Both the position numbers and the translations under genes were made by a program. Below, in pieces: positions 16,914-44,734 of a stretch of DNA of 46,710 nucleotides (position 1 is the first letter of the stretch; each line of letters begins with the position of its first letter). Source of the stretch: an uncultured Syntrophaceae bacterium (lineage in GTDB: Bacteria > Desulfobacterota > Syntrophia > Syntrophales > UBA2192); the NCBI GenBank assembly GCA_964429555.1, contig CAYSDD010000002.1:1-46710 (forward strand), read 5' to 3'. The notes beneath the pieces are model-generated. The model was not told where the DNA came from, searched no databases, and was given only the letters and a program-made list of their open reading frames with translations.

Positions 16914-17600
16914 TCAGTCCCCGCGGGGCCGGCGGCCGCGGTGGTCCTCGTCCTGGATGGCCTGGAACTCACGGTCTGCGATCTCCAGGAGGCCCGCCAG
17001 GGCCGCCAGGCGGCGCCGCGTGGAGGCCGGCATGGCCCGCACGGACTTGTACTGGATGTCGTGCTCGATCTCGGCCCAGGCGTGCTGCAGGATCGTCCGG
17101 ACCTGGATCTCGGCGACGAGCCCCCGGAAGCCCTCCCGGTCGGGCCGGTCGGTCTCCTCCGGCGGCAGCTCCACCAGGTAGTGCACGCTCTGATACCCGA
17201 ACCGCCCGGAGGCCTGGAGCGTCTCCGACTTGTTGTCCCTCTCGAGCACGAAGAACCGCTCCCGGATGACGGCATCGATCTCGGACACGGTCCGGGGAAA
17301 GAACGTGATGACCCGCACGCCGGCCAGGTCCGTCACCCACCGCAGGGGGTCCTCGACGGCCATCGAGGTCCTCTTCGCGGCCAGAATCCGAAGGATCTTC
17401 CTCTCCACGTTCTCCGGCGTCTTGGCCCGCGCCTCGATGGAGTGAATCCGGATGGAACGCTGCGCAATGCGCTCCAGGAGATCCTGGCGGATGATTCGGC
17501 AGAACGCCTCGTAGGCGGGCCGCAGCGACGCATAGCGCTGCAGGGCCCCGGAGAGGCGGGTTTCGGCCATCCCCGCGTGCATGCTCTTCAGGCTCCTCAT
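16914..17600 (-). CDS. Small RelA/SpoT-domain protein (small alarmone synthetase-like nucleotide pyrophosphokinase)
   Basis: DLAGVRVITFF, GYQSVHYLV and EIQVRTILQHAWAEIEHD synthetase motifs. ATG 17600 overlaps the ATPase stop as ATGA. No hydrolase (HD) domain. Confidence 0.8.
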   Translation of the reverse strand: MRSLKSMHAGMAETRLSGALQRYASLRPAYEAFCRIIRQDLLERIAQRSIRIHSIEARAKTPENVERKILRILAAKRTSMAVEDPLRWVTDLAGVRVITFFPRTVSEIDAVIRERFFVLERDNKSETLQASGRFGYQSVHYLVELPPEETDRPDREGFRGLVAEIQVRTILQHAWAEIEHDIQYKSVRAMPASTRRRLAALAGLLEIADREFQAIQDEDHRGRRPRGD

Positions 17601-20362
17601 GACCGACTCCTTTCCCCCCCCGCCAGGGACGCCGCGGCGGGCGTGGCGCGCTCTCTCAGCCATTTCTCCCCGCCGACGGCCAGGGAGACGGCGAGGGAGA
17701 CGGCGACGACGGCGGCCCAGTCGGCAAGCGCCAGGGGAGCGCTGTGGAACAGGGTGTTCATCCACGGGTGGTAGGTGTAGAAGAGCTGCAGCGCAACCGT
17801 GGCGGCCGATCCGCCGAGCACCCAGGGATTCGAGAAGAACCCCAGGCTCCGCATCGAGTGCCGCAGGGAACGGCAATTGAAGAGGTAGAAGAGCTCGATC
17901 ATGACGATCACGTTGACGGCTACGGTCCGCGCCTCGGCCAGCCCGGCACCGGATTGTTTCTTCAGCAGGAACAGCGCAAAGACGCCGAGCAGCATCAGGA
18001 CGCTCACCAGGATGATCCGCTGGATCAGGACCCCCGTCAGGATCGGGCTGTCCGGGACCCGGGGCGGCCGGAACATGACGTCAGACTCCTTGGTTTCGAA
18101 GGCCAGCATCAGCCCCAGCAGCACGGCGGTGGTCATGTTGATCCAGAGGATCTGCACGGGCAGCACCGGCAGGGCGACACCCGTGCCCGCCAGGACGGAG
18201 GTGATGATCACGAGGGCCTCGCCCCCGTTGGTGGGCAGCGTCCAGACGAAGAACTTCGTCAGGTTGTCGAAGATGCGGCGCCCCTCCTCGACGGCCGCCT
18301 CGATGGTGGCGAAGTTGTCGTCGGTGAGAACCATGTCCGCGGCCTCCTTGGCGACCTCCGTCCCCGTGATGCCCATGGCGATCCCGATGTCGGCCTGTTT
18401 CAGGGCCGGCGCGTCGTTGACGCCGTCGCCCGTCATGGCGACGACGTGGCCCCTGGCCTGCAGGGCCTCGACGAGCCGCAGCTTCTGCTCCGGGGCGACG
18501 CGGGCAAAGACCCTGGCCCGCCCCGCCACGTCGATGAGCTCCGCGTCGGAGAGTGCCTGCAGCTCCCGCCCGGTCACGGCGACGTCCCGGCCGTTTCCGG
18601 CGGCGGGGTCCGTCAGGCCGAGTTGGGCCGCGATGGCCGCCGCCGTGACGGCGTGGTCCCCCGTGATCATCTTGACCTCGACGCCCGCCGTCCTGCAGGT
18701 CTCGATCGCCTTCATCGCCTCCTGCCGGGGCGGGTCGATCATGCCCTGCAGCCCCAGAAAGGTCAGGCCCGCAATGCCGTCGGCCGATTCGAAGGCCCTC
18801 TGCGCCGCCGGCAGTTCTTTCCGGGCGAAGGCGAGCACCCGGAGGCCCTCTGACGCCATGGCCTCGGCGGCCTGCAGGACCGAATCCCGGTCGAGAGCGT
18901 CCGCGGAGCCGTCGCGGGCAAGGGCCTGCGTGCTCTGCTCGAGCACCTTCTCGACGGCGCCCTTGACGTAGGCGACGGGCGCCCGGCCTTCGCCCGGGTC
19001 GTGCAGCGTGGCCATGTAGGCCCTCTCCGACTCGAAGGGGATGACGTCGATCCGAGTCCATGCGCCGCCCGTGCCGGGCTGCAGGCCCGCCTTGGCGGCG
19101 GAGACGAGGAGGGCCCCTTCCGTCGGGTCGCCCTCGATCCCCCAGCGCCCCTCCTGTTGAACCAGCCGGGAATCGTTGCACAGCAGCCCCGCCCGGAGGC
19201 ACTCCGCGAGGGCCGGGGACGAGTCCGGGTCGGCCGGGGCGCCGCCCGCAAGGATCTCCCCCTCGGGCGCGTAGCCGCTCCCGGTGATCTCGTAGAGTTC
19301 CCCGCCGGCGCTGATTTTCTGCACCGTCATCTGGTTCTCCGTCAGGGTGCCCGTCTTGTCGGAGCAGATCACCGTTGTGCTCCCCAGCGTCTCGACGGCG
19401 GGGAGCTTTCGGATGATGGCGTGGACGTCGGCCATCCGCTTCACCCCGATCGCCAGGGTGATCGTCACGGCGGCGGGAAGACCCTCGGGAATGGCGCTCA
19501 CCGCCAGGGCGACGGCCGCCATGAACATCTCGAGGGCGGTGTGCCCGACGAACCATCCCGCGAAGAACATGGCGGCAGAAACCGCCAGGATGACGACGAG
19601 GAGCACCCGGCTGAAGTGGGCGATCTTCCTCGTCAGGGGCGTCGAGATCTCGACGGCCGCGGCGATGAGGCCCGAGATGCGGCCGGTCTCCGTCCGGTCG
19701 CCCGTGGCGACGACGATGCCGCGGCCCTGGCCGAAGGTCACCAGCGTCCCGGCGTAGGCCATGTTTCCGCGGTCTGCAAGGACCGTATCCGTGGGCATCA
19801 CGTCGACGTGCTTGGCGACCGGGACGGACTCGCCCGTCAGGGCCGACTCGTCGACCTGGAGCTCCCGCGAGACGAAGAGGCGCAGATCGGCAGGGACCTT
19901 GTCGCCCGACTGCAGCAGGACGATGTCGCCCGGGACGAGATCGGCGGACGGCACCGTGTGCGGGGAGCCGTCCCGCAGGACGACGGCCTGGGTCGTCATC
20001 ATCGTCATGAGGGACTCGATCGCGCTCTCCGCCCGCGATTCCTGGATGAACCCGACGACGGCGTTGACGAGGACCACGCCGAAGATGACCGAGGAGTCGA
20101 CCCACTCGCCGAGGGCCGCCGTCACGGCCCCCGCGCCGATCAGGATGTAGATGAGCGGCTGGTGGAACTGCAGCAGGAACCGCATCAGCGGACCGGTCTT
20201 CTTTCTCGGCGTCACGCGGTTGGGGCCGAAGCGGGCAAGCCGGTCGGCGGCATCGGCGGACGTCAGGCCCCGCTCGAGATCCGTGACGAACTCGGCCGCC
20301 GTTTCCTCGACGGGACACCCGTGGCAGGGCTGTTCCGGCAGCTGCGTCAACATGGCGGACAT
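17597..20362 (-). CDS. Cation-transporting P-type ATPase (P2/Ca2+-Mg2+-like class)
   Basis: 921 aa. DKTGTLTENQMTV, TGDHAVTA, MTGDGVNDAPALKQADIGIAMG, cation-ATPase N-domain (GLTSADAADRLARFGPNRV). Confidence 0.9.
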   Translation of the reverse strand: MSAMLTQLPEQPCHGCPVEETAAEFVTDLERGLTSADAADRLARFGPNRVTPRKKTGPLMRFLLQFHQPLIYILIGAGAVTAALGEWVDSSVIFGVVLVNAVVGFIQESRAESAIESLMTMMTTQAVVLRDGSPHTVPSADLVPGDIVLLQSGDKVPADLRLFVSRELQVDESALTGESVPVAKHVDVMPTDTVLADRGNMAYAGTLVTFGQGRGIVVATGDRTETGRISGLIAAAVEISTPLTRKIAHFSRVLLVVILAVSAAMFFAGWFVGHTALEMFMAAVALAVSAIPEGLPAAVTITLAIGVKRMADVHAIIRKLPAVETLGSTTVICSDKTGTLTENQMTVQKISAGGELYEITGSGYAPEGEILAGGAPADPDSSPALAECLRAGLLCNDSRLVQQEGRWGIEGDPTEGALLVSAAKAGLQPGTGGAWTRIDVIPFESERAYMATLHDPGEGRAPVAYVKGAVEKVLEQSTQALARDGSADALDRDSVLQAAEAMASEGLRVLAFARKELPAAQRAFESADGIAGLTFLGLQGMIDPPRQEAMKAIETCRTAGVEVKMITGDHAVTAAAIAAQLGLTDPAAGNGRDVAVTGRELQALSDAELIDVAGRARVFARVAPEQKLRLVEALQARGHVVAMTGDGVNDAPALKQADIGIAMGITGTEVAKEAADMVLTDDNFATIEAAVEEGRRIFDNLTKFFVWTLPTNGGEALVIITSVLAGTGVALPVLPVQILWINMTTAVLLGLMLAFETKESDVMFRPPRVPDSPILTGVLIQRIILVSVLMLLGVFALFLLKKQSGAGLAEARTVAVNVIVMIELFYLFNCRSLRHSMRSLGFFSNPWVLGGSAATVALQLFYTYHPWMNTLFHSAPLALADWAAVVAVSLAVSLAVGGEKWLRERATPAAASLAGGERSRS

Positions 20363-20596
20363 CTTCTCCTCGGGGGCAGACGGCTTGCGGATACGGGGTT
20401 GCCGGTCTCGAACGACGGGCCTGGACGCGTCGGGGATTCCCCGGTAGCGGATGCCGGGGTCACGGGGGGCGGCAGAGAGCCCGGGCCCGGATACATGTCA
20501 GGCCGCAATCCGACGTCCGTCTGATGGCGGCCCGACCATCGGCAGATCACCTCCGGAATCGCGCTTCCGGACCCGTTTCCGTTCACTCGTTTCGAC

Positions 20597-29436: not shown

Positions 29437-29465
29437 TTGACAGATAGCCATTGTTTATGTATGGA
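29437..29465 (+). promoter_or_regulatory. Candidate promoter for the activase operon, overlapping an ATC-N9-GAT dyad
   Basis: TTGACA (29437-29442), 17-nt spacer, TATGGA (29460-29465). The dyad ATCTATTTGACAGAT (29431-29445) fits the LysR T-N11-A pattern. Confidence 0.45.
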
Positions 29466-29528
29466 ACCGGATCGAGTTCGGGCGGCGCGGGCCCGGGAAT
29501 GCTCCCGCCTCGGGAGGGTGAACAGGCG

Positions 29529-30275
29529 ATGAAGGGGATCGGGCTGGACATCGGTTCACGGACCATCAAGCTCGTCGTCTGCGAAAACGGCAGCATGACG
29601 ATGAAGCGCAAAGAGGTGAACACCTACGACCCCCTCACCCTGTGCCGGGAGATGCTGAATGGCTTTGAGGCAGAGCGTATCATCGCGACGGGCTACGGGC
29701 GCCATCTGCTCAAAGGATATCTCCAGTGCGAAACGATCAGTGAGATCAAGGCCTTCGCACTGGGAGCCCTTGCCCTCTGCGGCTCCTGCCGGACGGTCCT
29801 GGACATCGGCGGCCAGGACACGAAGGCCATCTCCCTGGACGAAAACGGGAGAATCCTCAAATTCCAGATGAACGACAAGTGCGCCGCCGGGACCGGGCGC
29901 TTCCTCGAGGTCATGGCCACGGCGCTCGGGCTTTCCCTGGAGGATTTCATGGCGGCGGCGGCCGCCGCCGAAGAACCCGAGTCGGTCAGCAGCATGTGCG
30001 CGGTCTTCGCCGAGTCGGAGGTGATCTCCATGATCGCCCGCGGTGCGCCGCGGCCGGGGATCGCACGGGGAATCCACCAATCCGTCGCCCGGCGGGCCGT
30101 GTCCCTGCTCGAGAAGGTATCGATTCGCGAGGACATCCTGTTTGCCGGCGGCGTCGCGCTGAACCCCTGCATGCGCGCGCAGATCGAGGAGCATCTCGGC
30201 CGGCGCGTCATGGTGCCCGGTGACCCGCAGATCGTGGGCGCTCTGGGGTGCGCGCTGATGGCCTCGGAGGCATGA
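29529..30275 (+). CDS. BadF/BadG/BcrA/BcrD-type ATPase: (R)-2-hydroxyacyl-CoA dehydratase-type activase
   Basis: MKGIGLDIGSRTIKLVV, LDIGGQDTKAI, NDKCAAGTGRFLE, MCAVFAESEVIS, FAGGVALNP. Confidence 0.9.
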   Translation: MKGIGLDIGSRTIKLVVCENGSMTMKRKEVNTYDPLTLCREMLNGFEAERIIATGYGRHLLKGYLQCETISEIKAFALGALALCGSCRTVLDIGGQDTKAISLDENGRILKFQMNDKCAAGTGRFLEVMATALGLSLEDFMAAAAAAEEPESVSSMCAVFAESEVISMIARGAPRPGIARGIHQSVARRAVSLLEKVSIREDILFAGGVALNPCMRAQIEEHLGRRVMVPGDPQIVGALGCALMASEA

Positions 30276-30281
30276 AGCAGC

Positions 30282-31490
30282 ATGGCTAATCAGCACTCGG
30301 CACACGAGAAACAGCGGATCCCGTCGGGCCCCGCGAGTTCGCAGGCGGAACCCCTCCTGTGTGACGGCTTCCACGCCGACCCCGCCGGACGCATCCTCAG
30401 CTGCATCCTGTCGAAGCGGGAACAGGGTTCACCCGTCATCGGCCTGTACTGCGGGTACGCCCCTCTGGAGCTGGTCCGGGCCATGGGCGCCGTGCCCGCC
30501 TTCCTCTGCGCCGCCTCGGGCCGGACGATCCCCGCCGCCGAGGCGGTCCTTCCCGCCAATCTCTGCCCGCTGATCAAGTCGAGTTTCGGGTTCATCCGGA
30601 CGAAATCGTGCCCCCTCTACGAGCTTGCCGACGCCGTCATCGGCGAGACGACCTGCGACGGGAAGAAAAAGATGTTCGAGCTGATCGCCCCGCTCAAGCC
30701 GACCCACGTCATGGATCTTCCCTACAGGCCCGATGAGGAAGGGACCCTCGCACGCTGGACGCAGATGGTCCGCAAGCTCAAGAGATTCCTCGAGGAAACC
30801 TTCGCTCGTGCGATCCCGGAGGAACGGATCGAGGCCGAGATCCGGGAAACGAACGCGAAATGCCGGCTCATCGACCGCGTCTTCGATTACGCCGCCCTGG
30901 CGCGGCCGGCCATCCACTGGAGCGAACTGCTCGATGTGATCGGGTTCGAGCCCCTCACCGGCTGCGAGGAATTCCGCCGGTTCGTGGAGCCCGCGCTGGA
31001 ACGGCTCGAGGCCCGCGCCGTTCGCGGCATCGGTTTCGGGCGGCCCGGCGCGCCGCGCGTTCTGGTCAGCGGCTGCCCGATCGGGGGGGAAGCGAAAAAG
31101 GTCCTGCGCCTCATCGAAGAGGCGGGGGGCGTCGTCGTCGCCATGGAGGGATGCAGCGGCATGAAGGGATATTCCATCCGAATCGACGAGGGGACCGGCG
31201 ACCCGCTCGGGGCCGTGGCCGCGGCAACCCTGAAGATCCCCTGCTCCTGCATGACGCCCAACCGGGGGCGGTTCGACGCCCTCGACGAGATGATCGCCCG
31301 GTACCGGCCGGATGCCGTCATCGACGTCATTCTTCAGGCCTGCCACACCTACAACATCGAGTCCCACCGGATCGGGCGGCACATCCGCGACCGGCACGGG
31401 CTGCCCTTTCTGAAAGTCGAGACGGACTATTCCGAATCCGACATCGAGCCGCTGCGCACCCGCATCGAGGCCCTGCTCGAGAGCTGCTGA
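30282..31490 (+). CDS. 2-hydroxyacyl-CoA dehydratase / BcrB-superfamily protein, single-subunit (double-cubane-cluster reductase-like)
   Basis: 402 aa. GLYCGYAPLELVRAMGAVP, CPLIKSSFG, ETTCDGKKKMFE, SGCPIGG, ACHTYN. Only one large subunit is paired with the activase. Confidence 0.8.
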   Translation: MANQHSAHEKQRIPSGPASSQAEPLLCDGFHADPAGRILSCILSKREQGSPVIGLYCGYAPLELVRAMGAVPAFLCAASGRTIPAAEAVLPANLCPLIKSSFGFIRTKSCPLYELADAVIGETTCDGKKKMFELIAPLKPTHVMDLPYRPDEEGTLARWTQMVRKLKRFLEETFARAIPEERIEAEIRETNAKCRLIDRVFDYAALARPAIHWSELLDVIGFEPLTGCEEFRRFVEPALERLEARAVRGIGFGRPGAPRVLVSGCPIGGEAKKVLRLIEEAGGVVVAMEGCSGMKGYSIRIDEGTGDPLGAVAAATLKIPCSCMTPNRGRFDALDEMIARYRPDAVIDVILQACHTYNIESHRIGRHIRDRHGLPFLKVETDYSESDIEPLRTRIEALLESC

Positions 31491-31511: not shown

Positions 31512-31811
31512 TCAGTCGAGGGCCGTCACTTCGCCCGGAGGGAATCCCCCCTTCTCGAGCCTCTCCCGGATCGTTTCGATGCTCGTCCTTTTGTCGTCGA
31601 AGGTGACCGTCGCCTCTCGGGTGAAGGCGTTGACGTCATGCTTCACCACGCCCGGGGTCGTCCGGAGGATGAAGTTGACCTGCGGCACCGTGGAGGGGCA
31701 GTCGCAGGCCTCGATCTTGAGCCGGATGGTCTTTTCGGCCGCAGAGGCGTCCGGCGCCGCGGCGAGGGCCGTGAGTGCGAGCAGGACGGTGAGAACGTGC
31801 AGCGTCTTCAT
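31512..31811 (-). CDS. Secreted HMA (heavy-metal-associated)-like domain protein with CxC in place of CxxC
   Basis: 99 aa. Signal peptide MKTLHVLTVLLALTALAAAPDASA. IRLKIEACDCPSTVPQV...GVVKHDV...ATVTFD. ATGA overlap with the upstream gene. Confidence 0.65.
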   Translation of the reverse strand: MKTLHVLTVLLALTALAAAPDASAAEKTIRLKIEACDCPSTVPQVNFILRTTPGVVKHDVNAFTREATVTFDDKRTSIETIRERLEKGGFPPGEVTALD

Positions 31812-32173
31812 CGCGGACCTCCCGTTGATTCCGATTGCTCCGCAGAACAGTCGCGGATGAAACGAGCCAGTTCCTCTTCGTTCAACCCCGCCCCGCGCCT
31901 GCCGTCCAGGCGCCGGGCGACGGCACCCTTGCGAAAGAACAGCACGGTCGGAAAGATCTCGATCGCCCAGGGGTCCGACAGCGTGTCCCCGTCGTCCTGC
32001 ACGAGAGCGAACCGCCCCGGGTCCCGTGCGTGATTCTCGAACACGGGCAGGAACCTGCGGCTGTAGGGGCACCAGGAGGCGTAGAACAGGGCGAACAGCT
32101 CGTCTCGGGAGCGCAGGAGCGCCTCGAGATCCGGCGCGCTCGTAACCCGGGGGATTTGGGATGTTTCTTCCAT
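31808..32173 (-). CDS. Thioredoxin-fold protein with monothiol WCPYS motif
   Basis: SD AAAGGAG 8 nt before ATG 32173. LFALFYASWCPYSRRFLPVF...IFPTVLFF. Confidence 0.7.
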   Translation of the reverse strand: MEETSQIPRVTSAPDLEALLRSRDELFALFYASWCPYSRRFLPVFENHARDPGRFALVQDDGDTLSDPWAIEIFPTVLFFRKGAVARRLDGRRGAGLNEEELARFIRDCSAEQSESTGGPR

Positions 32174-32236
32174 CACGCGTTCTCCTTTCCTGGGCTGTCG
32201 AGCCCGTTCGTCCGGGGCCCGCGACGGGGGTCGGCA

Positions 32237-33457
32237 TCACCCCTGAGCGATTCCCAGCACGTCCCGGCAGAGGATCTGCAGGTCACGAAGCTCGGCCCGC
32301 TGCCGGGGCTCGAGTCGCTTGGGTACCCCGGCGGCCCCGAGGGACCGGTTGATTCGCCGGGCCGCGGCGAAGAGGTGCGCGAGGGCCTCCGGGATGTTGA
32401 AATCCCGATGCATCGCCTCGCGGAACCGCACCCCGAGTTCGGTCGTGGCCCCCGCAACCCGGGCTTCTCCTTCCCCGTCCGCCCCGCAGCGCCCGGCAAG
32501 GCCGGAGAGCCGATCGAGGGCCGCGGCCGCCTCCCCGAGCCGCCGCTCCGTCAAGTCCACGGGTCGACGGTAATGCGTCGAGAGGAGGAACAGCCGGATC
32601 GCCCCCGGCCGATGATGCCGGAGCAGGTCGCGGATCCGTCCGCCCCGGTCCTCGGATTTTGAAAGCTTCCTCCCCTTGAGCGTCACCAGTTCGTGATGGA
32701 GCCAGTACCGGGCGAGGTCCGTCCCGTCGAGGCTGCGCGAAAGGGCCCTCTCGTTTTCATGATGGGGAAAGATCAGGTCCCGGCCTCCGCCGTGGATATC
32801 GAACAGGCTGCCCAGGTGCCCGCGGCTCATGGCAACGCATTCGATGTGCCACCCCGGCCGGCCTCTCCCCCAGGGGCTCTCCCAGGCGACCGCATCCCCT
32901 TCGGCCCTCTTCCAGAGGGCGAAGTCCCGCCCGTCCTCCTTGGGGCCGCCCGGTCCCGACCGCAGCCCCGCATCGACGCCCGCGGCGTCCGCGAGGCGAC
33001 CGTAGTCGCCCCGCAGGCGGACCCGGAAGTAGACGCCGTCCTCGCGCACGTAGGCCTGCCCGTCGTCGATGAGCCTCGCGATCGCCTCGAGGATCGGCCC
33101 GATCCGTTCCGTCACGCGCGGCTCGAAATCGGGTGCGAGGACCCCGAGGGCGGCCATGTCCTCCCGGTACGAGCGGATGTAGCGGTCGGCGAGATCCCCG
33201 GCTGCGATCCGCTCGGTTCCCGCCCGTGCGAGGATCTTGTCGTCGAGATCCGTGAAGTTCCGCACGTACCGGACGGCATACCCCTCGAACCGCAGGAAGC
33301 GGACGACCACATCGAAAAAGACCGCCGACCGGGCGTGGCCGACGTGGGCGTGGTCATAGACCGTGGGCCCGCAGACGTAGATTCCGATATGCCCCGGCCG
33401 GATCGGGACAAACGGCTCGAGCGACCCCGTCAGGGTGTTCCAGAGACGCAGCGGCAC
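32237..33457 (-). CDS. cysS: Cysteine--tRNA ligase family protein lacking the C-terminal anticodon-binding module (406 aa)
   Basis: [17 protein letters not shown] (HIGH), [23 protein letters not shown] (Zn ligands), KLSKS. Ends about 50 aa after [12 protein letters not shown], where E. coli CysRS continues for roughly 60 more residues. GTG start 4 nt after the selB stop, with GAGGGAG as SD. Confidence 0.85.
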
Positions 33458-33461
33458 CGCC

Positions 33462-35390
33462 CTACTCCCTCAGCACGCGCTCGTTGCCGCGGCGCTCGGT
33501 GAACCCGATCGCGTCGAGATGCTCGAGAAGGGGCAGGCCGATCGTGCGGCCGCACCCGAGGACCGGGTTGCAGTCCGCGGGCGTGAAGCGACCCTGTTTT
33601 GCAATCCAGGCGCGGATGCGGTCCTTGGCCGTTTCCAGGCCCCGCCGCGAAATGTAGCGCTCGCCGCCCAGCATCACGACGTGTCTCTTCGAGACCAGGT
33701 GTCCGAGGAGGCGCCTGACCTTCGGCTTCTCGTCCGGGAGACCCAGGGCCGCGCTGATCACGGCGACCGTGACGGTGACGGTGCCCGCGCGCTCGACCGC
33801 CTCGAGCACGCGCGCGAGCAGGGGATCCCGAAGGGATCCCAATCTCCGGTGCATCTCCGAAAGAGCATACCCTCCGTTGACGGACGCCAGGACCCCCTCG
33901 CGGACCAGCTCCCCGAGCAGGAAATCCAGGGCCCCGGGCTCCAGGTTCCAGGGGATCGATGCGGCGATGTGCGACTTGCTGATCTGATCGCGCAGGGTGT
34001 CCTCGGCAAGCGTCCGTTCGACGGCCTCCGCGATCTTGCGCTTGGCCTCCTGCGCGGTTTCCGCCGAAAGGAAGGAGCCGGCGTCGAGGGGAACGAGGAA
34101 CCCCGCCTCGCTCTGCCTTTTCAGCACGTTCTCGAAGACGGCGCGATCCAGTCCCGTGGATCGGCTCAGCCCCTCCGCGGTCAGTACGGCGGCGGGCTGC
34201 GCGGCGGCGGCGGCCTTCACGATCCGCCCCGGATCGCCCGTTTGCAGCCCGGTCAAGTAGGCAAGGGTCCTCTCCGCACGCGCCCGCCGGAACTTGACCC
34301 TCGTTGTCTCGAGGATCGTGCCGCCGCCGAGCACGGAAGGGCTGTTCATGGGCGTCATGATGCATCGATCCCGGGGAGCCGCACCGAGCGGTGCCGTGAG
34401 CCGGAATTGCACCAATCCCCTCTGCCCGGGGACGAGTTCCTCCCGGCCCATGATCACCGCCAGAGCCGACCCGACTGCACTGCCGACGTGCACCTTGACC
34501 CTCTGGCCGCTGCGGAGGGGCTGCCCGGAAAGGCGGCACAGCTCCAGCTCGACATTCAGGTAGGCGGCCGCCTCGAGGCACCCCGGCTCCGAGAGGACCA
34601 TTCCCCGGGCGATTTCCCCCGCCCCGACCCCCTGCAGGTTGATCCCGACCCGAAGGCCGGCGGAGGCGGACTCCACGGCGTTGTGATGGGACTCCAGAGA
34701 CCGCACGCGGACCGTCTTCCCGCCCGGGACGATCTCGAGCCGGTCTCCCGCCCGCACGGTGCCCGACAGGATCGTCCCGCTCACCACGGTGCCCAGGCCC
34801 TGGAAGATTCGAACCTGGTCGACGAACATCCGGAAGGGTTTCGAGGAGGCCTTGCTCCGGATCCCCGCCGCGGCCATCCCGTCCAGGACCGCCAGGACTT
34901 CATCCCGGCCCCGCCCGTCGATGCCGGAAAACGGGATGACCGGCCCGTTTTCGAGGAACGACCCCGCCGCGAGTTCCTCGATGTCCAGGGCGGCCATTTC
35001 CAGGGTCTCCCGGTCGACCAGGTCGGCCTTTGTCAGCACGGCGAAGCCGGCCGTGACGCCGAAGAAGCGCAGGATCTCCAGGTGCTCCCGCGTCTGGGGC
35101 ATGACCCCGTCGTCGGCCGCCACCGCCAGGATCGCCGCATCGACGGCGCTCAGCCCCCGGATGGTGTTCTTCATGAAATCCCGGTGGCCGGGCACGTCGA
35201 CCAGGCTGACCCGCAGGCCCGACGGCAGCACGAGCGGGGCGATGCCGAACTCGATGGAGAGGCCCCGGGCCTTTTCGACCTGCATCCGGTCCGTGTCGAC
35301 GCCCGTCAGGGCGGCGACCAGCGTCGTCTTGCCGTGGTCGACATGCCCGGCGATGCCGACCGTGTAATGTCTCTGCATGATTGCGCCCAT
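33462..35390 (-). CDS. selB: Selenocysteine-specific elongation factor SelB family
   Basis: 642 aa. GHVDHGKTTL, DVPGHRDF, TKADL. C-terminal winged-helix region ...LLEHLDAIGFTERRGNERVL matches the E. coli SelB C-terminus. The domain II pocket motif reads FVDQVRIF instead of AIDRAF. Confidence 0.85.
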   Translation of the reverse strand: MGAIMQRHYTVGIAGHVDHGKTTLVAALTGVDTDRMQVEKARGLSIEFGIAPLVLPSGLRVSLVDVPGHRDFMKNTIRGLSAVDAAILAVAADDGVMPQTREHLEILRFFGVTAGFAVLTKADLVDRETLEMAALDIEELAAGSFLENGPVIPFSGIDGRGRDEVLAVLDGMAAAGIRSKASSKPFRMFVDQVRIFQGLGTVVSGTILSGTVRAGDRLEIVPGGKTVRVRSLESHHNAVESASAGLRVGINLQGVGAGEIARGMVLSEPGCLEAAAYLNVELELCRLSGQPLRSGQRVKVHVGSAVGSALAVIMGREELVPGQRGLVQFRLTAPLGAAPRDRCIMTPMNSPSVLGGGTILETTRVKFRRARAERTLAYLTGLQTGDPGRIVKAAAAAQPAAVLTAEGLSRSTGLDRAVFENVLKRQSEAGFLVPLDAGSFLSAETAQEAKRKIAEAVERTLAEDTLRDQISKSHIAASIPWNLEPGALDFLLGELVREGVLASVNGGYALSEMHRRLGSLRDPLLARVLEAVERAGTVTVTVAVISAALGLPDEKPKVRRLLGHLVSKRHVVMLGGERYISRRGLETAKDRIRAWIAKQGRFTPADCNPVLGCGRTIGLPLLEHLDAIGFTERRGNERVLRE

Positions 35391-35452: not shown

Positions 35453-35544
35453 TGGAAGGGGCAAGGGGAATCGAACCTCCTCCTCGTTGCTGAGACGAGG
35501 CCAACGGATTTGAAGTCCGCGGGGTGCCCAGCACCATTGCCCCT
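35453..35544 (-). tRNA. selC: tRNASec-like (selC-type) tRNA, anticodon UCA, 8-bp acceptor, 4-bp bulged T stem, long variable arm, discriminator U73, encoded CCA
   Basis: Hand fold of the minus strand: AGGGGCAA UG GGUG-CUGGG-CACC CC GCGGA-CUUCAAA-UCCGU UGG CCUCGU-CUCAGCA-ACGAGG A GG(A)GG-UUCGAUU-CCCC UUGCCCCU U CCA. Anticodon at 35511-35513. Confidence 0.8.
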
Positions 35545-37398: not shown

Positions 37399-38334
37399 TT
37401 ACCTCTTTGCGAGCGGTTCCGGGCGGTAGGCCCGGATGAAATCGAGAAAGATCCGGTGGTGCGCCATCAGGTCGAAGTGCCTGCGGTGAATGACGTAAAA
37501 GAAGCGCTCGACGGGGCAGCCCTCGATGGGCAGCGCGGCAAGGATCCCCGAGGCGATCTCCCTCCGGACGGCGTAGATGGAAATCACGGAAAGGCCGACG
37601 CCGGCGATGACGGCCTCCTTGACCGCCTCGGAGCTCCCCATCTCGGCAACGACCCGAAACCGGGACAGGTCCGTTTTGCCGGCCTCGGCAAGGCACCGCT
37701 CGAAGGCGTCGCGGGTGCCCGAGCCCCGCTCGCGGATCACGAAGGGCTCCTTCTCGAGCTCGCGGACACGGACGGTTTTCCTCTTCGCCCAGGGGTGCGC
37801 CGCGGGAACGGCCAGCACCATCCGGTCCCGCCAGAGCGGTTCGGCCGCCAGCTTCGCGCCGGCGGGCTCCTTGCCGATGAAGCCGATCTCGGCGCCGTTC
37901 TCCAGGACCGTCTCGATGACCTCGCTGCTGTCGGCCGCCCGCACGGCGGTCCGGATCGCGGGGAATTTCTCCCGAAACGCAGCGATCGCCGGGGGCAGGA
38001 TGTAGGTGGCCGGGATCGTGCTGGCGGCGATCCGGATGTCCCCCTCCTCGGCGGCGCGCGCCCGCATCACCCGCTCCATGGCCTCCTCGCGCAGCTTCAG
38101 GATCCGCCGGGCGTAGTCGTACACCACGCGCCCCTCGGGCGTCAGCGTGAAGGCGCGGCTCGCGCGGTTGACCACCTTCGCCCCCAGGGCGTCCTCGAGG
38201 TTGCGGATGTGCTTCGTGAGCGACGGCTGGGAGAGGTACATCCTCCTGGCCGCCCGGCTGAAGCTGCGTTCCTCGACGAGGTGCACCAGGGCCTCGAGCT
38301 GCAGCATGTTGACGTTTTTCATCTCGGCCTGCAT
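37399..38334 (-). CDS. LysR-family transcriptional regulator (selenium-cluster associated)
   Basis: 311 aa. HTH LQLEALVHLVEERSFSRAARRMYLSQPSLTKHIRNLE. Divergent from yedE. Its stop is 4 nt before the thrC ATG. Confidence 0.85.
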   Translation of the reverse strand: MQAEMKNVNMLQLEALVHLVEERSFSRAARRMYLSQPSLTKHIRNLEDALGAKVVNRASRAFTLTPEGRVVYDYARRILKLREEAMERVMRARAAEEGDIRIAASTIPATYILPPAIAAFREKFPAIRTAVRAADSSEVIETVLENGAEIGFIGKEPAGAKLAAEPLWRDRMVLAVPAAHPWAKRKTVRVRELEKEPFVIRERGSGTRDAFERCLAEAGKTDLSRFRVVAEMGSSEAVKEAVIAGVGLSVISIYAVRREIASGILAALPIEGCPVERFFYVIHRRHFDLMAHHRIFLDFIRAYRPEPLAKR

Positions 38335-38467
38335 GGCCTGTCCCTACCATGACCCTTTTCGATAATCAAGAAGCATTTATGAATTATTGGAATTGGCGTT
38401 ATTCAGAAAAGAAGGGTAATAAAAAAGCGCTTTCCTCATCCCAGACCCTGTGAAGGAGGACCCCGGT

Positions 38468-39541
38468 ATGGGCAACCCGTTTGCATCCCGCGCGGGAATC
38501 ATCGTCGTCGGCGTTGCCATCGGCATCATGGCAACGCTCCTGCAGTACTTTGGCAACCCCCCGAACATGGGCATCTGCGTGGCCTGCATGGAGCGCGACA
38601 TTGCGGGCGCCCTGGGCCTGCACCGGGCCGCCGTCGTGCAGTATCTTCGCCCCGAGATCATCGGCTTCGTGATCGGGGCCTTCCTCGCCGCCCTGCTCGC
38701 GAAGGAGTACCGGCCCCGCGGGGGGTCGGCGCCGCTCGTGCGCTTCTTTCTCGGCGTCTTCGCCATGATCGGCGCACTGGTGTTCCTGGGCTGCCCCTGG
38801 CGGGCGCTGCTGCGGCTTGCGGGGGGCGACTGGAACGCCCTCACGGGCCTCGCGGGCCTGGCGACGGGCATCGGCGTGGGCGTCGCCTTCCTCAAATCGG
38901 GCTACAGCCTGGGCCGCGCCCAGCCGCAGAAGGCGGCGTCGGGTATCCTCTTCCCCGTCTTCATGGCCGGGCTCTTCCTGCTGCTCGTCTTCCGGGTGAC
39001 CTTCGCCGAGGGCGGCCCCCTCTTTTTCAGCCAGAAGGGTCCGGGGTCGCAGTTCGCCCCCGTCTGGATGAGCCTGGGCGCCGGGGTGCTCGTCGGGGCC
39101 ATCGCCCAGCGCAGCCGGTTCTGCACCATGGGGGCCCTGCGGGACGTCATCCTGCTGAAGGATTTCCACCTCATGAGCGGCGTGGCGGGTCTGCTCGTCG
39201 CCGCCTTTGCCATGAATCTCATCCTGGGGCAGTTCAAGCCCGGTTTTGCAGGCCAGCCGATCGCCCACACGGACCATCTCTGGAATTTCCTGGGGATGGC
39301 GCTCGCGGGCCTGGCCTTCGCGCTGGCCGGCGGCTGCCCGGGCCGCCAGCTGTTCCTCTCCGGCGAGGGGGACCTCGACGCGGGCATCTTCGCCCTGGGC
39401 ATGATCGTCGGGGCCGGCGTGTCGCACAACTTCGCCATGGCCAGCTCGCCCGCCGGCGCCGCCGCCTTCGGGCCGGCCGGCGTCATCGTGGGCTTCGTCT
39501 TCTGCCTGGCCGTGGGGTTCACGATGCGGGAGAAGGCCTGA
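38468..39541 (+). CDS. yedE: YedE-family putative selenium/sulfur-compound transporter
   Basis: GAAGGAGG 8 nt before ATG 38468. GNPPNMGICVACMERDIAGALGLH, FCTMGALRD, about 9 TM segments. Confidence 0.85.
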   Translation: MGNPFASRAGIIVVGVAIGIMATLLQYFGNPPNMGICVACMERDIAGALGLHRAAVVQYLRPEIIGFVIGAFLAALLAKEYRPRGGSAPLVRFFLGVFAMIGALVFLGCPWRALLRLAGGDWNALTGLAGLATGIGVGVAFLKSGYSLGRAQPQKAASGILFPVFMAGLFLLLVFRVTFAEGGPLFFSQKGPGSQFAPVWMSLGAGVLVGAIAQRSRFCTMGALRDVILLKDFHLMSGVAGLLVAAFAMNLILGQFKPGFAGQPIAHTDHLWNFLGMALAGLAFALAGGCPGRQLFLSGEGDLDAGIFALGMIVGAGVSHNFAMASSPAGAAAFGPAGVIVGFVFCLAVGFTMREKA

Positions 39542-39590
39542 TGCAAGGACCCGGAGCCAAGAACGACCATTTCGCTGAAAGGAGACCGTC

Positions 39591-39803
39591 ATGAGCGCAA
39601 CGCGAATCGATGCCCGGGGCCTTTCCTGCCCCCAGCCCGTCGTCCTGACCAGCAGGGCCATCGAGGGCGGGGCGGAGAGCCTGGAAGTCCTCGTCGACAA
39701 CGAGGTGTCGAAGGAAAACGTGCTTCGCCTGGCGAAGCGGCACAAGATGCAGGCCTCGGTCCGTCCGGAAGGGCCCGATATTGTCATCGAAATCAAAAAG
39801 TAG
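39591..39803 (+). CDS. TusA/SirA-family sulfurtransferase-like protein
   Basis: 70 aa. IDARGLSCPQPVV motif. SD AAAGGAG. Confidence 0.85.
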   Translation: MSATRIDARGLSCPQPVVLTSRAIEGGAESLEVLVDNEVSKENVLRLAKRHKMQASVRPEGPDIVIEIKK

Positions 39804-39864
39804 TATAAGGAAACACCAACCGGGGCCTTCCCTGCGGGAAAGGCTCCGATTTGTTTAGGAAGGA

Positions 39865-40410
39865 ATGCGGAGATTCATGTTTTTCAAATCCGGCAAAAAG
39901 AACGGTTTCGAGGGCGGCGGGCTCGTCCTGTTCGAAAGCGTGGAAGAGGCCATGAGCGGCGAGCGGGCCCTGAAGGCGGGAGAATTCGAGACCCGTCTCG
40001 TGGCGCCCCCGCCCGAGCTCAGGCGGGGCTGCGATCTCGCCCTGGAGATCAACCTCGTGGAAAAGCCCGCCGTCGAGCGGGCGCTGCAGGAGCGCGAGGT
40101 CCCCTTCCTCGACATCCTGCCCATCCGGGGCGACGCGGAGCTTCTCCAGGTCGTCAAGGTCACCGACTTCGGCGAGGCCCTCATGGTCAAGGCGGGCAAC
40201 ATGAAGCTCACCTTCGACAAGGCCTCGGGCGTCGTCCTGAACATCTCGGGCGGCGGCTGCCCCGACATCCCCTACCTGCACGCCGAGATGCTGGCCAAGC
40301 CGCTGGAGCAGGCGCCGCGGCCCAAGGCCATCGGCCGCACGCTCTGCGCCCTCATGCTGGACCGCGCCTGGGAGCAGTCGCTCGAAATCCGGAAGAACGG
40401 CAACGGGTGA
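39865..40410 (+). CDS. DUF3343 (putative Se/S carrier)-like domain fused to an uncharacterised Cys-containing C-terminal domain
   Basis: N-terminal LVLFESVEEAMSGERALKAGEFETRLVAPPPELRRGCDLAL. C-terminal half has ISGGGCPDIPY and TLCALMLD. Alternative start ATG 39877. Confidence 0.65.
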   Translation: MRRFMFFKSGKKNGFEGGGLVLFESVEEAMSGERALKAGEFETRLVAPPPELRRGCDLALEINLVEKPAVERALQEREVPFLDILPIRGDAELLQVVKVTDFGEALMVKAGNMKLTFDKASGVVLNISGGGCPDIPYLHAEMLAKPLEQAPRPKAIGRTLCALMLDRAWEQSLEIRKNGNG

Positions 40411-40414
40411 GGCC

Positions 40415-41320
40415 ATGCTGCTCGTCTGCGGAACCGCCCCGCTCAAAGAGCTCCCGCTGACCGAGGGGGAGGCGGGGCTCGACGGGGACATCCTGCGCGT
40501 CGGCGGTGCCGGGATCCCCTGCACGCAGGGCACGGCGGCCCTGGTGAGCGCCGCCTGCAAGACGCTGGACTACCTGGGCCAGCCCGCGCCCCGGGTGCTG
40601 CTCGTGGGCGACGACGGCACCGGCAAGGGCAGCCGGCAGCTCTACGAGCGCCTGATCGAGGATCTGCCCCGCCTGGCCCCCCGGGTCGTCGTGCTGCACT
40701 ACATGCTGCCCGTCATGGGGCTCATGCGCAGGGTGAGCGAGTCGGCCTCCAAGGCGCCTCGGCGCCCCTTCATGATCGCCGATGCCGCGGCCATGTACGC
40801 CGCCAAGGCGGCGGGGATCGCCCGCGAGTTCGACCTCTTCACGCCGGACCTCTCGGAGCTGGCCTTCCTGGCGGACCCGCAGGCCACCCACCCGGCCTAC
40901 GTGAGCCGGCACCTCTTCGAGTCGGACAGCACGCGCATCCCCGAGATGGTCGCGGCGGCCTACGCCAACGGGAGCGCCGCCCGGACGCTCGTCGTGAAGG
41001 GCGCCACGGACCACATCGCGCAGGAGGGCAGGATCCTCGACACCCTGTCGGAGCCGGACATCCCGGCCCTCGAGGCCATCGGCGGTACGGGGGACACGAT
41101 CAGCGGCATGGTGGGGGCCCTCGTGCACGCCGGGTACGACGAGGTCACGGCGGCCCGCGTCGCCGTTCGGGCCAACCGCACGGCCGGGCTCTACGCCGGG
41201 GCCACGCCGGCCACGCGGATCCGGCAGGTCATCGAGGCCCTGCCCCGGGTCTTCGCCGATCACCTCGACGGGTGGGTGCGGCAGGCGCAAATCGAAAGAG
41301 CGGAAAGGAGCGCACCGTGA
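40415..41320 (+). CDS. Ribokinase-fold protein, YjeF C-terminal / NAD(P)HX-dehydratase (NnrD)-like
   Basis: 301 aa. LFTPDLSELAFL, LVVKGATDHIA, EAIGGTGDTISGMVGAL resemble NnrD motifs. Its stop overlaps the selD GTG (GTGA). Confidence 0.6.
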   Translation: MLLVCGTAPLKELPLTEGEAGLDGDILRVGGAGIPCTQGTAALVSAACKTLDYLGQPAPRVLLVGDDGTGKGSRQLYERLIEDLPRLAPRVVVLHYMLPVMGLMRRVSESASKAPRRPFMIADAAAMYAAKAAGIAREFDLFTPDLSELAFLADPQATHPAYVSRHLFESDSTRIPEMVAAAYANGSAARTLVVKGATDHIAQEGRILDTLSEPDIPALEAIGGTGDTISGMVGALVHAGYDEVTAARVAVRANRTAGLYAGATPATRIRQVIEALPRVFADHLDGWVRQAQIERAERSAP

Positions 41321-42369
41321 CGACGGAAAAGAAGATCCGCCTGACGGAGATGGTCCACGGGGCCGGCTGAGCGTGCAAGATCGGTCCGGAGGACCTGAGC
41401 CGAGCCCTGGAGGGGCTTCCCATCATCGCGGACCCCAACCTGATCGTCGGCCTCGAGGGCAACGAGGACGCGGGCGTCTACCGTCTGCGCGACGACCTGG
41501 CCATCATCCAGACGGTCGACTTCTTCACGCCCATCGTCGACGACCCCTACACCTTCGGGCAGATCGCCGCGACGAATTCCCTCTCCGACGTCTACGCCAT
41601 GGGCGGCCGGCCGATCACGGCCCTGAACATCATCTGCTTTCCGCCGAAGAAGCTCGACATGTCGGTCCTGCAGGCGATCCTGCGCGGCGGGCTGGACAAG
41701 ATGACGGAGGCGGGCGTCGTGCTCGTCGGGGGCCACAGCGTGGAGGACGACGAGCCGAAATACGGCCTCTCCGTGACGGGCGTCATTCACCCCGACCGGG
41801 TCCTGCGCAACCGCGGGGGCCGGCCCGGAGACAAACTGATCCTGACCAAGGCGCTCGGCACGGGCATCGTCAGCACGGCGATCAAGGGGGAGGAGGCCGA
41901 CCCGGCCCTCGTCGAGAAGGCCGTCCGGGCCATGACGACCCTGAACCGGCAGGCCGCCGAGCTGATGACGCAGATGCCCGTCATCCACGCCTGCACGGAC
42001 GTGACGGGGTTCGGCATGCTGGGGCACGCCTGCGAGATGATCGAGGGAAGCGACGTGGGGTTGACGATCGACGCCGCGGCCGTCCCCTGCTTCGAGGGGG
42101 TGCGGGAACTCGTGGAAAGCGGCTACGTGCCGGGGGGGCTCTACCGCAACAAGAACTTCCGGATGCCGATGATCGACGTCGAGCCGTCGTGCCCGGAGTG
42201 GCTGCTGGAGATCCTCTTCGACCCCCAGACCGCGGGCGGCCTGCTCATCGCCCTGCCGGCGGGGGACGCGGAAACGCTTGTCCGGCGCATGCGCGAGGCC
42301 GGGATCGGGGATGCGGCCGTGGTGGGCGAAGTGGTCGCCGCGCCGAAGGGGAAGATCATCGTCCGGTGA
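41317..42369 (+). CDS. selD: Selenide, water dikinase (selenophosphate synthetase) with in-frame UGA = selenocysteine at 41368-41370
   Basis: GTG 41317 after GGAAAGGAG. Translation VTTEKKIRLTEMVHGAG-U-ACKIGPEDL... aligns with E. coli ...[21 protein letters not shown] (UGA at the Cys17 position). Same frame as track ORF 41599..42369. 350 codons. Confidence 0.9.
41381..41398 (+). promoter_or_regulatory. Candidate SECIS hairpin 10 nt downstream of the selD UGA
   Basis: UC-GGUCC-GGA-GGACC-(U)-GA: 7 bp with a bulged U and a small apical loop. Hand fold only. Confidence 0.35.
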
Positions 42370-43582: not shown

Positions 43583-44734
43583 TCAATATGTCGATTCGCA
43601 CCCGTCGAGGGCCCGGCGGATCGTCGCACCGCCGAGCACGACCCCGCCGCCGTACAGGACAACCGATTGACCCGGCGTCACGGCCTCCTGCGGCTCGTCG
43701 AAGACGACCGTGAGGGAGCCGGGGCCCGTTTCGACCCGGCAGGACGCAGGCCGGTGCGCATAGCGGATCTTCGCATGCGCCGCAGCCGGCAGGGCATCGA
43801 CCAGGAGGTTCGGCTCGCCGGCCTCGAGACCCCTTGAAAGAAGGTCCTCCTTCGGGCCCACCACGACGAGATTTTCCGCCGGGTCGATGGAAAGAACATA
43901 CAGGAGATCCCCCCGCCCGGCCGAGAGGCGGGCCCGCTGGCCGATCGTGTAGCGGCCGATCCCCCGGTGCGTGCCGACGACCCGGCCCCGGCGGTCCACC
44001 ATCCTGCCGGGGCCCATGCCGGGCAGGCGGGCTTCGAGGAACGGCCCGATCGCGCCCCGGGGGATGAAACAGATGTCCTGGCTGTCGCCGCGCTGCGAGA
44101 CGGGCAGCCCGGCACGCCTGGCCAGTTCACGGACTTCCTGCTTCGTGTGTTCCCCGAGCGGGAAATGGATGTGCCCGAGGGCTTCCCGCCGCACCCGGCA
44201 GAGAAAGTAGGTCTGGTCCTTCCTGCGGTCCTTCGGCACGGCGAGGGCCGGCTTGCCTCCCCGCATCACGATCCGGGCGTAGTGCCCCGTGGCCAGTCCC
44301 CCGTATCCCAGCTGCCGGGCCTTTTCGAGAAGCATCCCGAACTTGATGTCCCGGTTGCACAGCACGCAGGGGTTCGGGGTCCTGCCCTGGCGGTACGCCT
44401 CCAGGAAGGGCTCGATCACGACCCGCTCCAAATCGTCCGTGAAATCGACCGCGTGGTGGGGGATCCCGAGAAGTCGGCACACCCCCGCCGCCTCTTCCAC
44501 ATCCCCCCAGCCGTAGCCGGCGGTGCCATCGGCTTTCCTGAAGAGGGTGAGCCCCGCGATGTCGAGGCCCCGTTCAGCAAGAAGCAGCGCCGCCACGGAA
44601 CTGTCAACCCCGCCGCTCATCGCGACGAGGATTTTCCCGGCCGCGTCCCGCCCGCGGCGGGAGATCTCCTCGCCGAGGCAGGGGGTCTTCCTGTCCTGAT
44701 ACGCGCCAACGTCCGTCATGACCCGCACACTCAC
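43583..44734 (-). CDS. mnmA: tRNA-specific 2-thiouridylase
   Basis: ILVAMSGGVDSSVAA PP-loop, NPCVLCN, ATGHYAR. The start is uncertain (44734 or 44719). Confidence 0.9.
   Translation of the reverse strand: MSVRVMTDVGAYQDRKTPCLGEEISRRGRDAAGKILVAMSGGVDSSVAALLLAERGLDIAGLTLFRKADGTAGYGWGDVEEAAGVCRLLGIPHHAVDFTDDLERVVIEPFLEAYRQGRTPNPCVLCNRDIKFGMLLEKARQLGYGGLATGHYARIVMRGGKPALAVPKDRRKDQTYFLCRVRREALGHIHFPLGEHTKQEVRELARRAGLPVSQRGDSQDICFIPRGAIGPFLEARLPGMGPGRMVDRRGRVVGTHRGIGRYTIGQRARLSAGRGDLLYVLSIDPAENLVVVGPKEDLLSRGLEAGEPNLLVDALPAAAHAKIRYAHRPASCRVETGPGSLTVVFDEPQEAVTPGQSVVLYGGGVVLGGATIRRALDGCESTY

Follow-up and report, generated by a model that had tools for sequence, protein, structure and literature searches.

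Which amino acid is delivered by a SelB-type elongation factor whose aminoacyl pocket departs from that of the selenocysteine (Sec)-delivering SelBs? The question is raised by an open reading frame in contig CAYSDD010000002.1 of an uncultured Syntrophaceae bacterium (assembly GCA_964429555.1); the whole stretch of 46,710 nt that was analysed is called the window here. The open reading frame very probably encodes SelB*, the elongation factor dedicated to the selC*-selB*-cysS* (tRNAReC) system, because a tRNASec-shaped tRNA with a U73 discriminator is found upstream, a dedicated cysteinyl-tRNA synthetase (CysRS) is encoded downstream, and the protein falls into a clade linked with U73 tRNAs. All three components, selC*, selB* and cysS*, are present on one strand of the window. 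A SelB tuned to cysteine (Cys) had already been proposed from a by-eye alignment of the pocket motif, referred to here as the sequence-only reading. The core of that proposal is strongly supported by the neighbours and the clade, i.e. the U73 tRNA and the dedicated CysRS, but the pocket argument as it was stated is too simple. The proposal is also not new, as selB* and its suggested role were published in 2017 (PMC5389517).

The selB* open reading frame (positions 33462..35390, minus strand) is intact, and its 642 amino acid translation is a full-length SelB-fold protein consisting of a GTPase domain, two beta-barrels and four winged-helix domains. Pfam matches are to GTP_EFTU, GTP_EFTU_D2 and SelB-wing_3, with the SelB beta-barrel match slightly below the cutoff. 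The NCBI selB equivalog TIGR00475 gives 289 bits, which passes its cutoff of 242.25, and the top phmmer matches among PDB sequences are E. coli SelB (5LZB) and A. aeolicus SelB (4ZU9). An AlphaFold2 model built from 25 homologues has a mean predicted local distance difference test score (pLDDT) of 86.5 and a predicted template modelling score (pTM) of 0.73. It displays the GTPase domain, the two barrels and four winged-helix units of the form H-H-H-E-E. The best Foldseek matches to the model are 4ZU9 (query TM-score, TMq, 0.71) and 5LZB_z (TMq 0.74), over approximately 640 columns and the full length. By fold and family the open reading frame is a bacterial SelB, with EF-Tu-like domains 1–3, four winged helices and a score over the family cutoff. 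The sequence-only reading had described the GTPase domain and the C-terminal winged helix that binds the selenocysteine insertion sequence (SECIS) as conserved; Pfam, the alignment and the core residues of winged-helix domain 4 (WHD4) all agree, and the model comparison that it had suggested as a check yields the complete SelB fold with 4ZU9 and 5LZB_z as the closest structures.

The partner tRNA, selC* (tRNAReC, a tRNASec-shaped tRNA-Cys of 92 nt), is situated at 35453..35544 on the minus strand, the strand of selB*, and its 3′ end precedes the selB* start codon by 62 nt. It was identified by ARAGORN, which calls a tRNA-SeC with anticodon tca, by Rfam RF01852 (53.7 bits), by direct reading and by its fold. 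Read directly, the sequence starts with AGGGGCAA and ends with UUGCCCCU-U-CCA. Its identity elements are the anticodon UCA, the pair A1:U72, the discriminator U73, an encoded CCA and a long variable arm. A U73 discriminator is typical of tRNACys. The acceptor/T branch (AGGGGCAA/UUGCCCCU together with a T-stem of 4 bp) is 12 bp long. An 8/4 drawing is possible with one A bulged out, but the minimum free energy fold shows the branch as 7/5. In an alignment of 11 selC* orthologues U73 is invariant and position 1:72 shows compensatory changes. Published criteria for tRNAReC are a length of at least 80 nt, an anticodon UCA or GCA, U73, a 12-bp branch of the 8/4 type, and A1:U72 when cysS* is present (PMC13582414). 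The selC* of the window has 92 nt, UCA, U73 and A1:U72, and the 8/4 branch is possible.

The cysS* gene (32237..33457, minus strand) begins four bases past the selB* stop codon and encodes a 406 amino acid protein, CysRS*, with the Pfam domains tRNA-synt_1e and DALR_2. CysRS* aligns to residues 2–369 of the 461 residues of E. coli CysRS, and TIGR00435 covers it with profile positions 1–377 of 466. As the alignment stops at residue 369 of 461, CysRS* is without the anticodon-binding domain. The CP1 segment, canonically xxGA-RV, reads DAGL-RS in the window, GSGS-RI in locus L010 and QTLS-RV in locus L008. The segment is altered from the canonical one, but it varies among orthologues and in none of them is it PTVS, the sequence reported for D. 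biacutus CysRS*. The standard CysRS of D. tiedjei has MSGA at this place, and the change has been connected with recognition of A1:U72 (PMC5389517).

These features can be set against the published system. The selC*-selB*-cysS* (tRNAReC) system was described in Desulfobacterales and Syntrophobacterales (Mukai et al., 2017, NAR 45:2776; PMC5389517). In it selB* and, in some genomes, cysS* come after a selC* tRNACys, the CysRS* having no anticodon-binding domain and an altered CP1; genomes with cysS* always have a selC* with A1:U72 and UCA. The window locus is similar in its tRNA-selB*-cysS* order, in its 8/4-type branch, UCA, A1:U72 and U73, in a CysRS without anticodon-binding domain, and in the linked UGA-containing selD, the type of gene used as a reporter in that work. 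It differs in the CP1 sequence (DAGL, not PTVS) and in the host, which here is a Syntrophales/Syntrophaceae-type metagenome-assembled genome from anaerobic digester metagenomes, whereas published cysS* genes come only from a Desulfobacterales subgroup. As far as the accessible literature shows, a cysS* in such a host appears to be previously unreported. Thus the system has been known since 2017, the window locus is a further member of it, and the signature in the pocket and in switch II is the added detail.

The pocket was compared with that of E. coli (Ec) SelB. The phmmer alignment to 5LZB places FRLAIDRAFTVKGAG opposite FRMFVDQVRIFQGLG with no gap, and GFTRRRGNDHLL opposite GFTERRGNERVL. 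SelB* reads D191-Q192-V193-R194 (34809..34820, minus strand) where E. coli SelB has D180-R181-A182-F183, equivalent to E226-D227-V228-F229 of EF-Tu (PMC4605307; PMC4329189). The literature numbering (D180, R181, F183, R236) is reproduced by counting in the alignment, which gives D191, Q192, R194 and R247 in the query. By direct translation the codons are at 34820-34818 for D191, 34817-34815 for Q192 and 34811-34809 for R194. The sequence-only reading had placed DQVR at the pocket motif, and since the gapless alignment and the translation agree, its register is correct; neither an Arg nor a His falls at the Ec R181 position.

Other parts of that argument need amendment. A His had been named beside the Asp in Aquifex SelB. 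The residue is in fact Ser (LRIFVDSAF in the phmmer alignment), and an Arg198 in the next strand makes up for this Ser186 (Itoh et al., 2015, PMC4605307), so a basic residue beside the Asp is not a rule for genuine SelBs. The substitution of Gln for Arg is real but not isolated, since Ec F183 is replaced by Arg (R194) and Ec Y42, equivalent to A. aeolicus (Aa) F45, by Ile (I50). Ec T193 is in addition replaced by Ser. I50 (35241..35243, minus strand) takes the place of an aromatic residue (Ec Y42, Aa F45, H67 in EF-Tu) that stacks on the pocket Arg. Position 198, the site of the compensating Arg in Aquifex, is Ser in SelB*. The salt-bridge pair D191-R247 (Ec D180-R236) is retained, with R247 (34650..34652, minus strand; Aa R241) aligned as the kept pocket Arg, and so is Arg35 of switch I. 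On the two properties by which a Sec-specific SelB was judged, SelB* thus differs: the pocket has Gln at 181, Ser at 198 and Ile at 42, with D191 and R247 present, and the adjoining tRNA carries U73 and A1:U72 in place of the G73 of a tRNASec, which SerRS serylates and SelA converts; selA is absent from the window.

Structures of relatives give the frame for these changes. The Aquifex pocket with bound L-cysteine is formed by Phe45, the Asp185-Arg241 salt bridge, Ser186/Arg198, His229 and Arg30 (PMC4605307), and the pocket floor of EF-Tu by His67, Glu226, Asp227, Phe229, Thr239 and Asn285 (PMC4329189, the MM1309 paper). The EF-Tu residues align to query positions 50, 191, 192, 194, 204 and 247. 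By this alignment the aromatic lid has become aliphatic, the Arg beside the Asp has become Gln, and the Phe two residues on has become Arg or Lys. The new Arg at pocket-floor position 194 is two residues beyond 192, and both Q192 and R194 lie on one beta-strand in the AlphaFold2 model, which would give them a same-side orientation. As the new Arg is on the same strand face and the Asp-Arg salt bridge is kept, the positive charge is probably relocated within a reshaped pocket and not simply lost. The likeliest reading, by analogy, is that the relocation follows the same logic as the 186/198 swap in Aquifex.

In comparison with canonical SelB (5LZB, 4ZU9), SelB* therefore shares the seven-domain architecture, the GTPase motifs, D180-R236, the switch I Arg and the WHD4 SECIS core, but has Gln at Ec R181, Arg at F183, Ile at Y42 and Ser at T193, diverges in the switch II and WHD4 613–617 motifs, and is accompanied by a U73 and not a G73 tRNA. 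A second relative is the archaeal aEF-X/MM1309, a SelB-family GTPase that binds Cys-tRNACys and protects it from hydrolysis (PMC4329189; PMC3037878). Handling of Cys-tRNA by a SelB relative thus has a precedent. However, MM1309 has only the three EF-Tu-like domains with no mRNA-binding winged helices, binds the ordinary tRNACys, shows no link to a dedicated tRNA or aminoacyl-tRNA synthetase, and keeps Phe at the position equivalent to F229.

The pocket changes extend across the clade. Protein groups were defined by four scaffold positions outside the pocket, giving 153 SelB*-type and 128 canonical proteins. At Ec R181 (query 192) Gln is found in 127 of the 153 SelB*-type proteins, and Arg in 123 of the 128 canonical ones. 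Ec F183 (query 194) is Arg or Lys in 128/153 as against Phe in 126/128, and Ec Y42 (query 50) is Ile or Val in 152/153 as against Phe or Tyr in 126/128. DRxF occurs in 122 of the 128 canonical SelBs. The pair Asp-Gln is present in 127/153 and 0/128, respectively. The sequence-only reading had named many bona fide single-copy SelBs with DQ as an observation that would speak against it, and none appeared among the canonical-scaffold proteins. Both groups have D191, R247 and Arg35 of switch I as invariant residues, and the more than 150 SelB* homologues keep the GTPase motifs and pocket residues invariant.

Database searches give the same division. The best 120 matches in a search of 5.8 billion proteins (42–100% identity) all have the variant or a close form. 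In an exhaustive HMMER search of 1.84 billion representatives the residue set changes abruptly at approximately 400 bits: above this score the residues are I/V50, T76, R78, W189, Q192, R/K194 and G249, and below it the same positions are canonical, namely F/Y, M, A, P, R, F and A. A metagenome scan with a SelB*-specific segment and a second, looser pattern produced 9 SelB*-type loci out of 80 and served as a canonical control set. The scan added approximately 60 canonical SelBs, and DRF is present in all that are long enough to span the motif. When some 400 columns were scanned without bias for those that discriminate the groups, position 50 ranked 1st, 194 5th, 192 8th and 204 15th. Four of the six pocket-floor positions are thus within the top 15 columns (hypergeometric P = 1.9e-5). 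As judged from these alignments the pocket is rebuilt clade-wide at several residues, Ec R181 to Gln, F183 to Arg/Lys, Y42 to Ile/Val and T193 to Ser, with D180-R236 kept.

A second cluster of SelB*-specific residues (T76, R78, L80) is situated in the switch II helix segment, residues 70–80 (RDFMKNTIRGL; 35151..35183, minus strand). SelB* proteins read HxDFxKNTIRGL in switch II as against HE[R/K]F[V/I]xNM[L/V]AG in canonical SelBs. The equivalent helix of EF-Tu touches the tRNA at its 5′ end (PMC4329189). As far as the accessible literature shows, with the exception of the Mukai 2017 supplement and the 2018 follow-up, the combined pocket and switch II signature appears to be undescribed.

The SECIS-binding core of WHD4 (R615, D626, T631, R633, G635, R638) is conserved in both groups. 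Adjacent residues 613–617 (33543-33557, minus strand) read YGR[T/S]V in SelB*-type proteins and CGRTI in the window, as compared with [T/S][S/T]RK[Y/F] in canonical ones; the altered sequence might mean that a different mRNA element is recognised. A further observation concerns a subgroup with the SelB* scaffold (P0137, P0139, P0140, P0141, P0145, P0154 and others) that has Cys at both 194 and 204, and in part of this subgroup the salt-bridge Arg247 is Gln. The subgroup may be a further functional variant. The selB*-type genes of L091 and L098 are found directly behind HdrA-like or Fe-S genes with no adjoining tRNA, and that of L093 (P0141) behind HdrA-like and FlpD genes with a U73 tRNA upstream.

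The arrangement of tRNA and selB* seen in the window is found at 10 further distinct loci, and the selC*-selB* gene order recurs across divergent lineages. The discriminator of the adjoining tRNA is U73 at 11/11 SelB* loci and G73 at 16/16 canonical loci. At the 11 distinct SelB*-type loci with a tRNA directly upstream the anticodon is UCA in nine and GCA in two. The cysS* gene is present at four distinct loci (the window, L008, L010 and L092), all with an A1:U72 tRNA, and the published rule that pairs cysS* with A1:U72 and UCA holds at these four. It was not seen at four loci with a G1:C72 tRNA, which also agrees with the published description; of these, L095 and L096 are short contigs whose ends fall within selB* or soon after it.

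Several loci depart from the pattern. At L095:2907-2998 and L096:537-628 the selC*-shaped tRNA has the sense Cys anticodon GCA together with G1:C72 and U73, in keeping with a published report of GCA in many tRNAReC. At L094:100-190, upstream of an intact SelB*-type gene, a selC*-like tRNA is reduced to its 3′ half (T-arm and 3′ acceptor strand, no CCA), and this remnant suggests decay or rearrangement of the tRNA. In L007 (Desulfococcus multivorans, GCA_000422185.1) the tRNA is of the A1:U72 type, yet selB* is followed by two tiny open reading frames only (7925-8270), in which tblastn gave no match to CysRS*. The Logan contig L008 encodes the same SelB* protein, followed by a CysRS* fragment. 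The discrepancy could be due to strain variation, gene loss or an assembly problem.

A candidate recoding target is located 6 kb from selB*. The selD gene (41317..42369, plus strand) has an in-frame TGA at codon 18 (41368-41370), situated in the catalytic GAG-U-xCK motif, which reads GAG-U-ACK here. It is the sole candidate in the window. When the window was searched automatically for further genes with a single TGA interruption, the only matches were neighbouring genes that share a frame. In L009, selD carries a TGA at the same codon and is found just downstream of selB*, and the L009 SelB* is only 43% identical to that of the window. The linkage of a UGA-containing selD in two diverged loci lends support to the idea that the system would solve the bootstrapping problem of a selenoprotein SelD.

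From these components the following sequence of events can be proposed. CysRS* would charge selC* (UCA, A1:U72, U73) with cysteine. SelB*-GTP would then bind the Cys-tRNA by way of the long acceptor branch that EF-Tu rejects, and the C-terminal winged helix would hold an mRNA hairpin so that Cys is delivered at the in-frame UGA of selenoprotein mRNAs. The nearest target mRNA would be that of selD, and SelD, like other selenoproteins, would be made in a Cys form with no need for selenium. The order from CysRS* by way of SelB* to Cys-SelD is proposed because D. biacutus selC* tRNA, charged by a mimic of CysRS*, suppresses a selD UGA in E. coli (PMC5389517). Later reviews state that SelC* and SelB* occur alongside the wild-type genes, with the presumed role of letting selenoproteins be made with Cys when selenium is scarce. 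We infer that the changes in the pocket and in switch II suit the factor to Cys, whose thiol is smaller and mostly protonated, to the U73 acceptor end, or to both, and that delivery would be SECIS-dependent with selD as a target. A preference of SelB* for Cys over Sec is plausible. A stronger form is possible but unlikely, namely a truly Cys-specific SelB* in which the pocket rejects the larger selenolate and Ser, switch II reads U73 and WHD4 reads a SECIS variant, so that with selC* and CysRS* it would form a natural, fully orthogonal UGA-to-Cys triple that runs parallel to the Sec channel instead of being a passive back-up, and that could be LysR-regulated together with selD and YedE.

A number of points weigh against the assignment of SelB* as a dedicated Cys factor. 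Canonical SelB accommodates L-cysteine in its pocket (PMC4605307) and, as cited in PMC13582414, reportedly delivers Cys-tRNAReC (Vargas-Rodriguez 2018), so a dedicated factor or a retuned pocket is not strictly required. Native CysRS* was inactive in E. coli and an engineered mimic was used in its place (PMC5389517). The segments that follow the selD UGA in the window and in L009 fold no better than shuffled sequences, and the small hairpins found there are out of register for a SECIS. Four SelB*-type loci (L091, L098, L099, L106) have no adjoining tRNA. The orientation of the Q192 and R194 side chains is modelled from strand register and homology, and the function of SelB*, for this protein as for every SelB*, is a prediction from sequence. 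Lastly, the canonical selA/selB/selC set is absent from the 46.7-kb window, where only selD is present, so the coexistence of SelB and SelB* is taken from the literature. In a genome-contig scan with the full-length alignment as query, the matches listed were mostly EF-Tu and canonical SelB with one SelB* locus, and they show no genome with both SelB and SelB*. A 2026 paper still describes the partition of UGA between tRNASec/SelB and tRNAReC/SelB* as unclear (PMC13582414).

Could the protein be an ordinary Sec-delivering SelB with a lineage-specific pocket, comparable to Ser186/Arg198 in Aquifex, and the upstream tRNA a genuine tRNASec? The selB equivalog cutoff is passed and the SelB fold is complete, the Asp-Arg salt bridge and the switch I Arg are kept with a basic residue nearby, Aquifex is a precedent for relocation of the basic residue, and no second selB is visible within the window. 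Nevertheless this is very improbable, given an adjoining tRNA with U73 and A1:U72 as against G73 at all 16 canonical loci, a CysRS paralogue without anticodon-binding domain in the same operon, a DQ signature absent from the 128 canonical-scaffold SelBs, and the published coexistence of selC*/selB* with wild-type selC/selB. Decay of a duplicated, non-functional set of Sec genes is less credible still and can be given almost no weight: every open reading frame of the window is intact, the GTPase motifs and pocket residues are invariant over the many homologues, and the selC* tRNAs show compensatory base changes in a gene order that recurs in divergent lineages. The inactivity of native CysRS* in E. 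coli (PMC5389517), the tRNA remnant at L094 and the lack of a detectable cysS* in D. multivorans (L007) are the observations on its side.

The protein might also be a more general SelB duplicate, whose changes serve the tRNA body and acceptor (U73, A1:U72, 8/4) or another mRNA element while the pocket changes are neutral or structural. The clade-specific cluster in the switch II helix, whose EF-Tu equivalents touch the tRNA 5′ end, the clade-specific changes at WHD4 613–617 and the fact that Cys is already accepted by canonical SelB would all fit. This explanation is judged improbable because so many pocket-floor positions rank among the most discriminating columns, and because drastic changes (Arg to Gln, Phe to Arg/Lys, aromatic to aliphatic) are held across proteins that are only 35–45% identical, which argues for selection on the pocket itself. 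SelB* as the dedicated factor of the tRNAReC system remains the preferred assignment.

The signature Q181, R/K183 and I/V42 with NTIRGL in switch II is a practical marker that separates SelB* from SelB. Annotation pipelines merge the two under one name, and so the reading of UGA in such genomes, as Sec or possibly as Cys, is affected. The signature is also a small set of residues that could be mutated to ask whether the elongation factor distinguishes Cys from Sec, a discrimination relevant to genetic-code engineering, which seeks orthogonal triples of elongation factor, tRNA and aminoacyl-tRNA synthetase.

Other selenium genes accompany selD. A YedE-family selenium transporter, TusA, a YedF-like Se/S carrier and a carbohydrate kinase are encoded upstream of selD on the same strand (38450..41320, plus). 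This order is also found after selB* in L009 and L093. Including selD, the set with its YjeF-type kinase extends over 38450-42369 (plus strand) in the window and over L009:7958-11905, and partially over L093:8003-10748; selD was not found at L093 despite the shared order of the four other genes. The gene for a LysR-type regulator (37399..38334, minus strand) separates the divergent selD cluster from the thrC-selC*-selB*-cysS* strand, and in L009 a LysR gene also precedes selC*.

The thrC-like gene upstream of selC*, encoding a pyridoxal phosphate-dependent enzyme, was considered as a possible member of the system, for instance by way of tRNA-dependent chemistry, and rejected. It passes the threonine synthase equivalog and is absent from eight other SelB* loci by tblastn, and is thus incidental. 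On the other side of the operon, 61 nt past cysS*, the next gene encodes a thioredoxin-fold protein with a WCPYS motif (31808..32176, minus strand), i.e. CxxS in place of CxxC. The segment 31512-32176 (minus strand) contains this gene and an open reading frame of 99 amino acids that has a CDC motif and a signal peptide. At the loci of other lineages neither of the two was found next to SelB*, and membership of the thioredoxin-fold gene in the system is uncertain.

Also adjoining the selB* operon, at 29451-31490 on the plus strand, are genes for a double-cubane-cluster anaerobic reductase (NF040772, 426 bits) and a BcrAD/BadFG-type ATPase. No in-frame UGA was seen in the reductase gene of the window. 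Homologues of the NF040772 family are found beside SelB* at L007, L008, L010, L011 and L092, all of the A1:U72 type.

Approximately 1.2 kb downstream of selD, a gene for MnmA (tRNA 2-thiouridylase) is located at 43583-44734 on the minus strand. 2-Thiouridine is the precursor of SelD-dependent 2-selenouridine, and so the proximity of the two genes may be non-accidental. Elsewhere in the window an nhaA-I riboswitch (RF03057, 44.1 bits with a gathering score of 37) is found at 20522-20574 on the minus strand, upstream of a gene for a P-type cation-transporting ATPase (17597-20362, minus strand).

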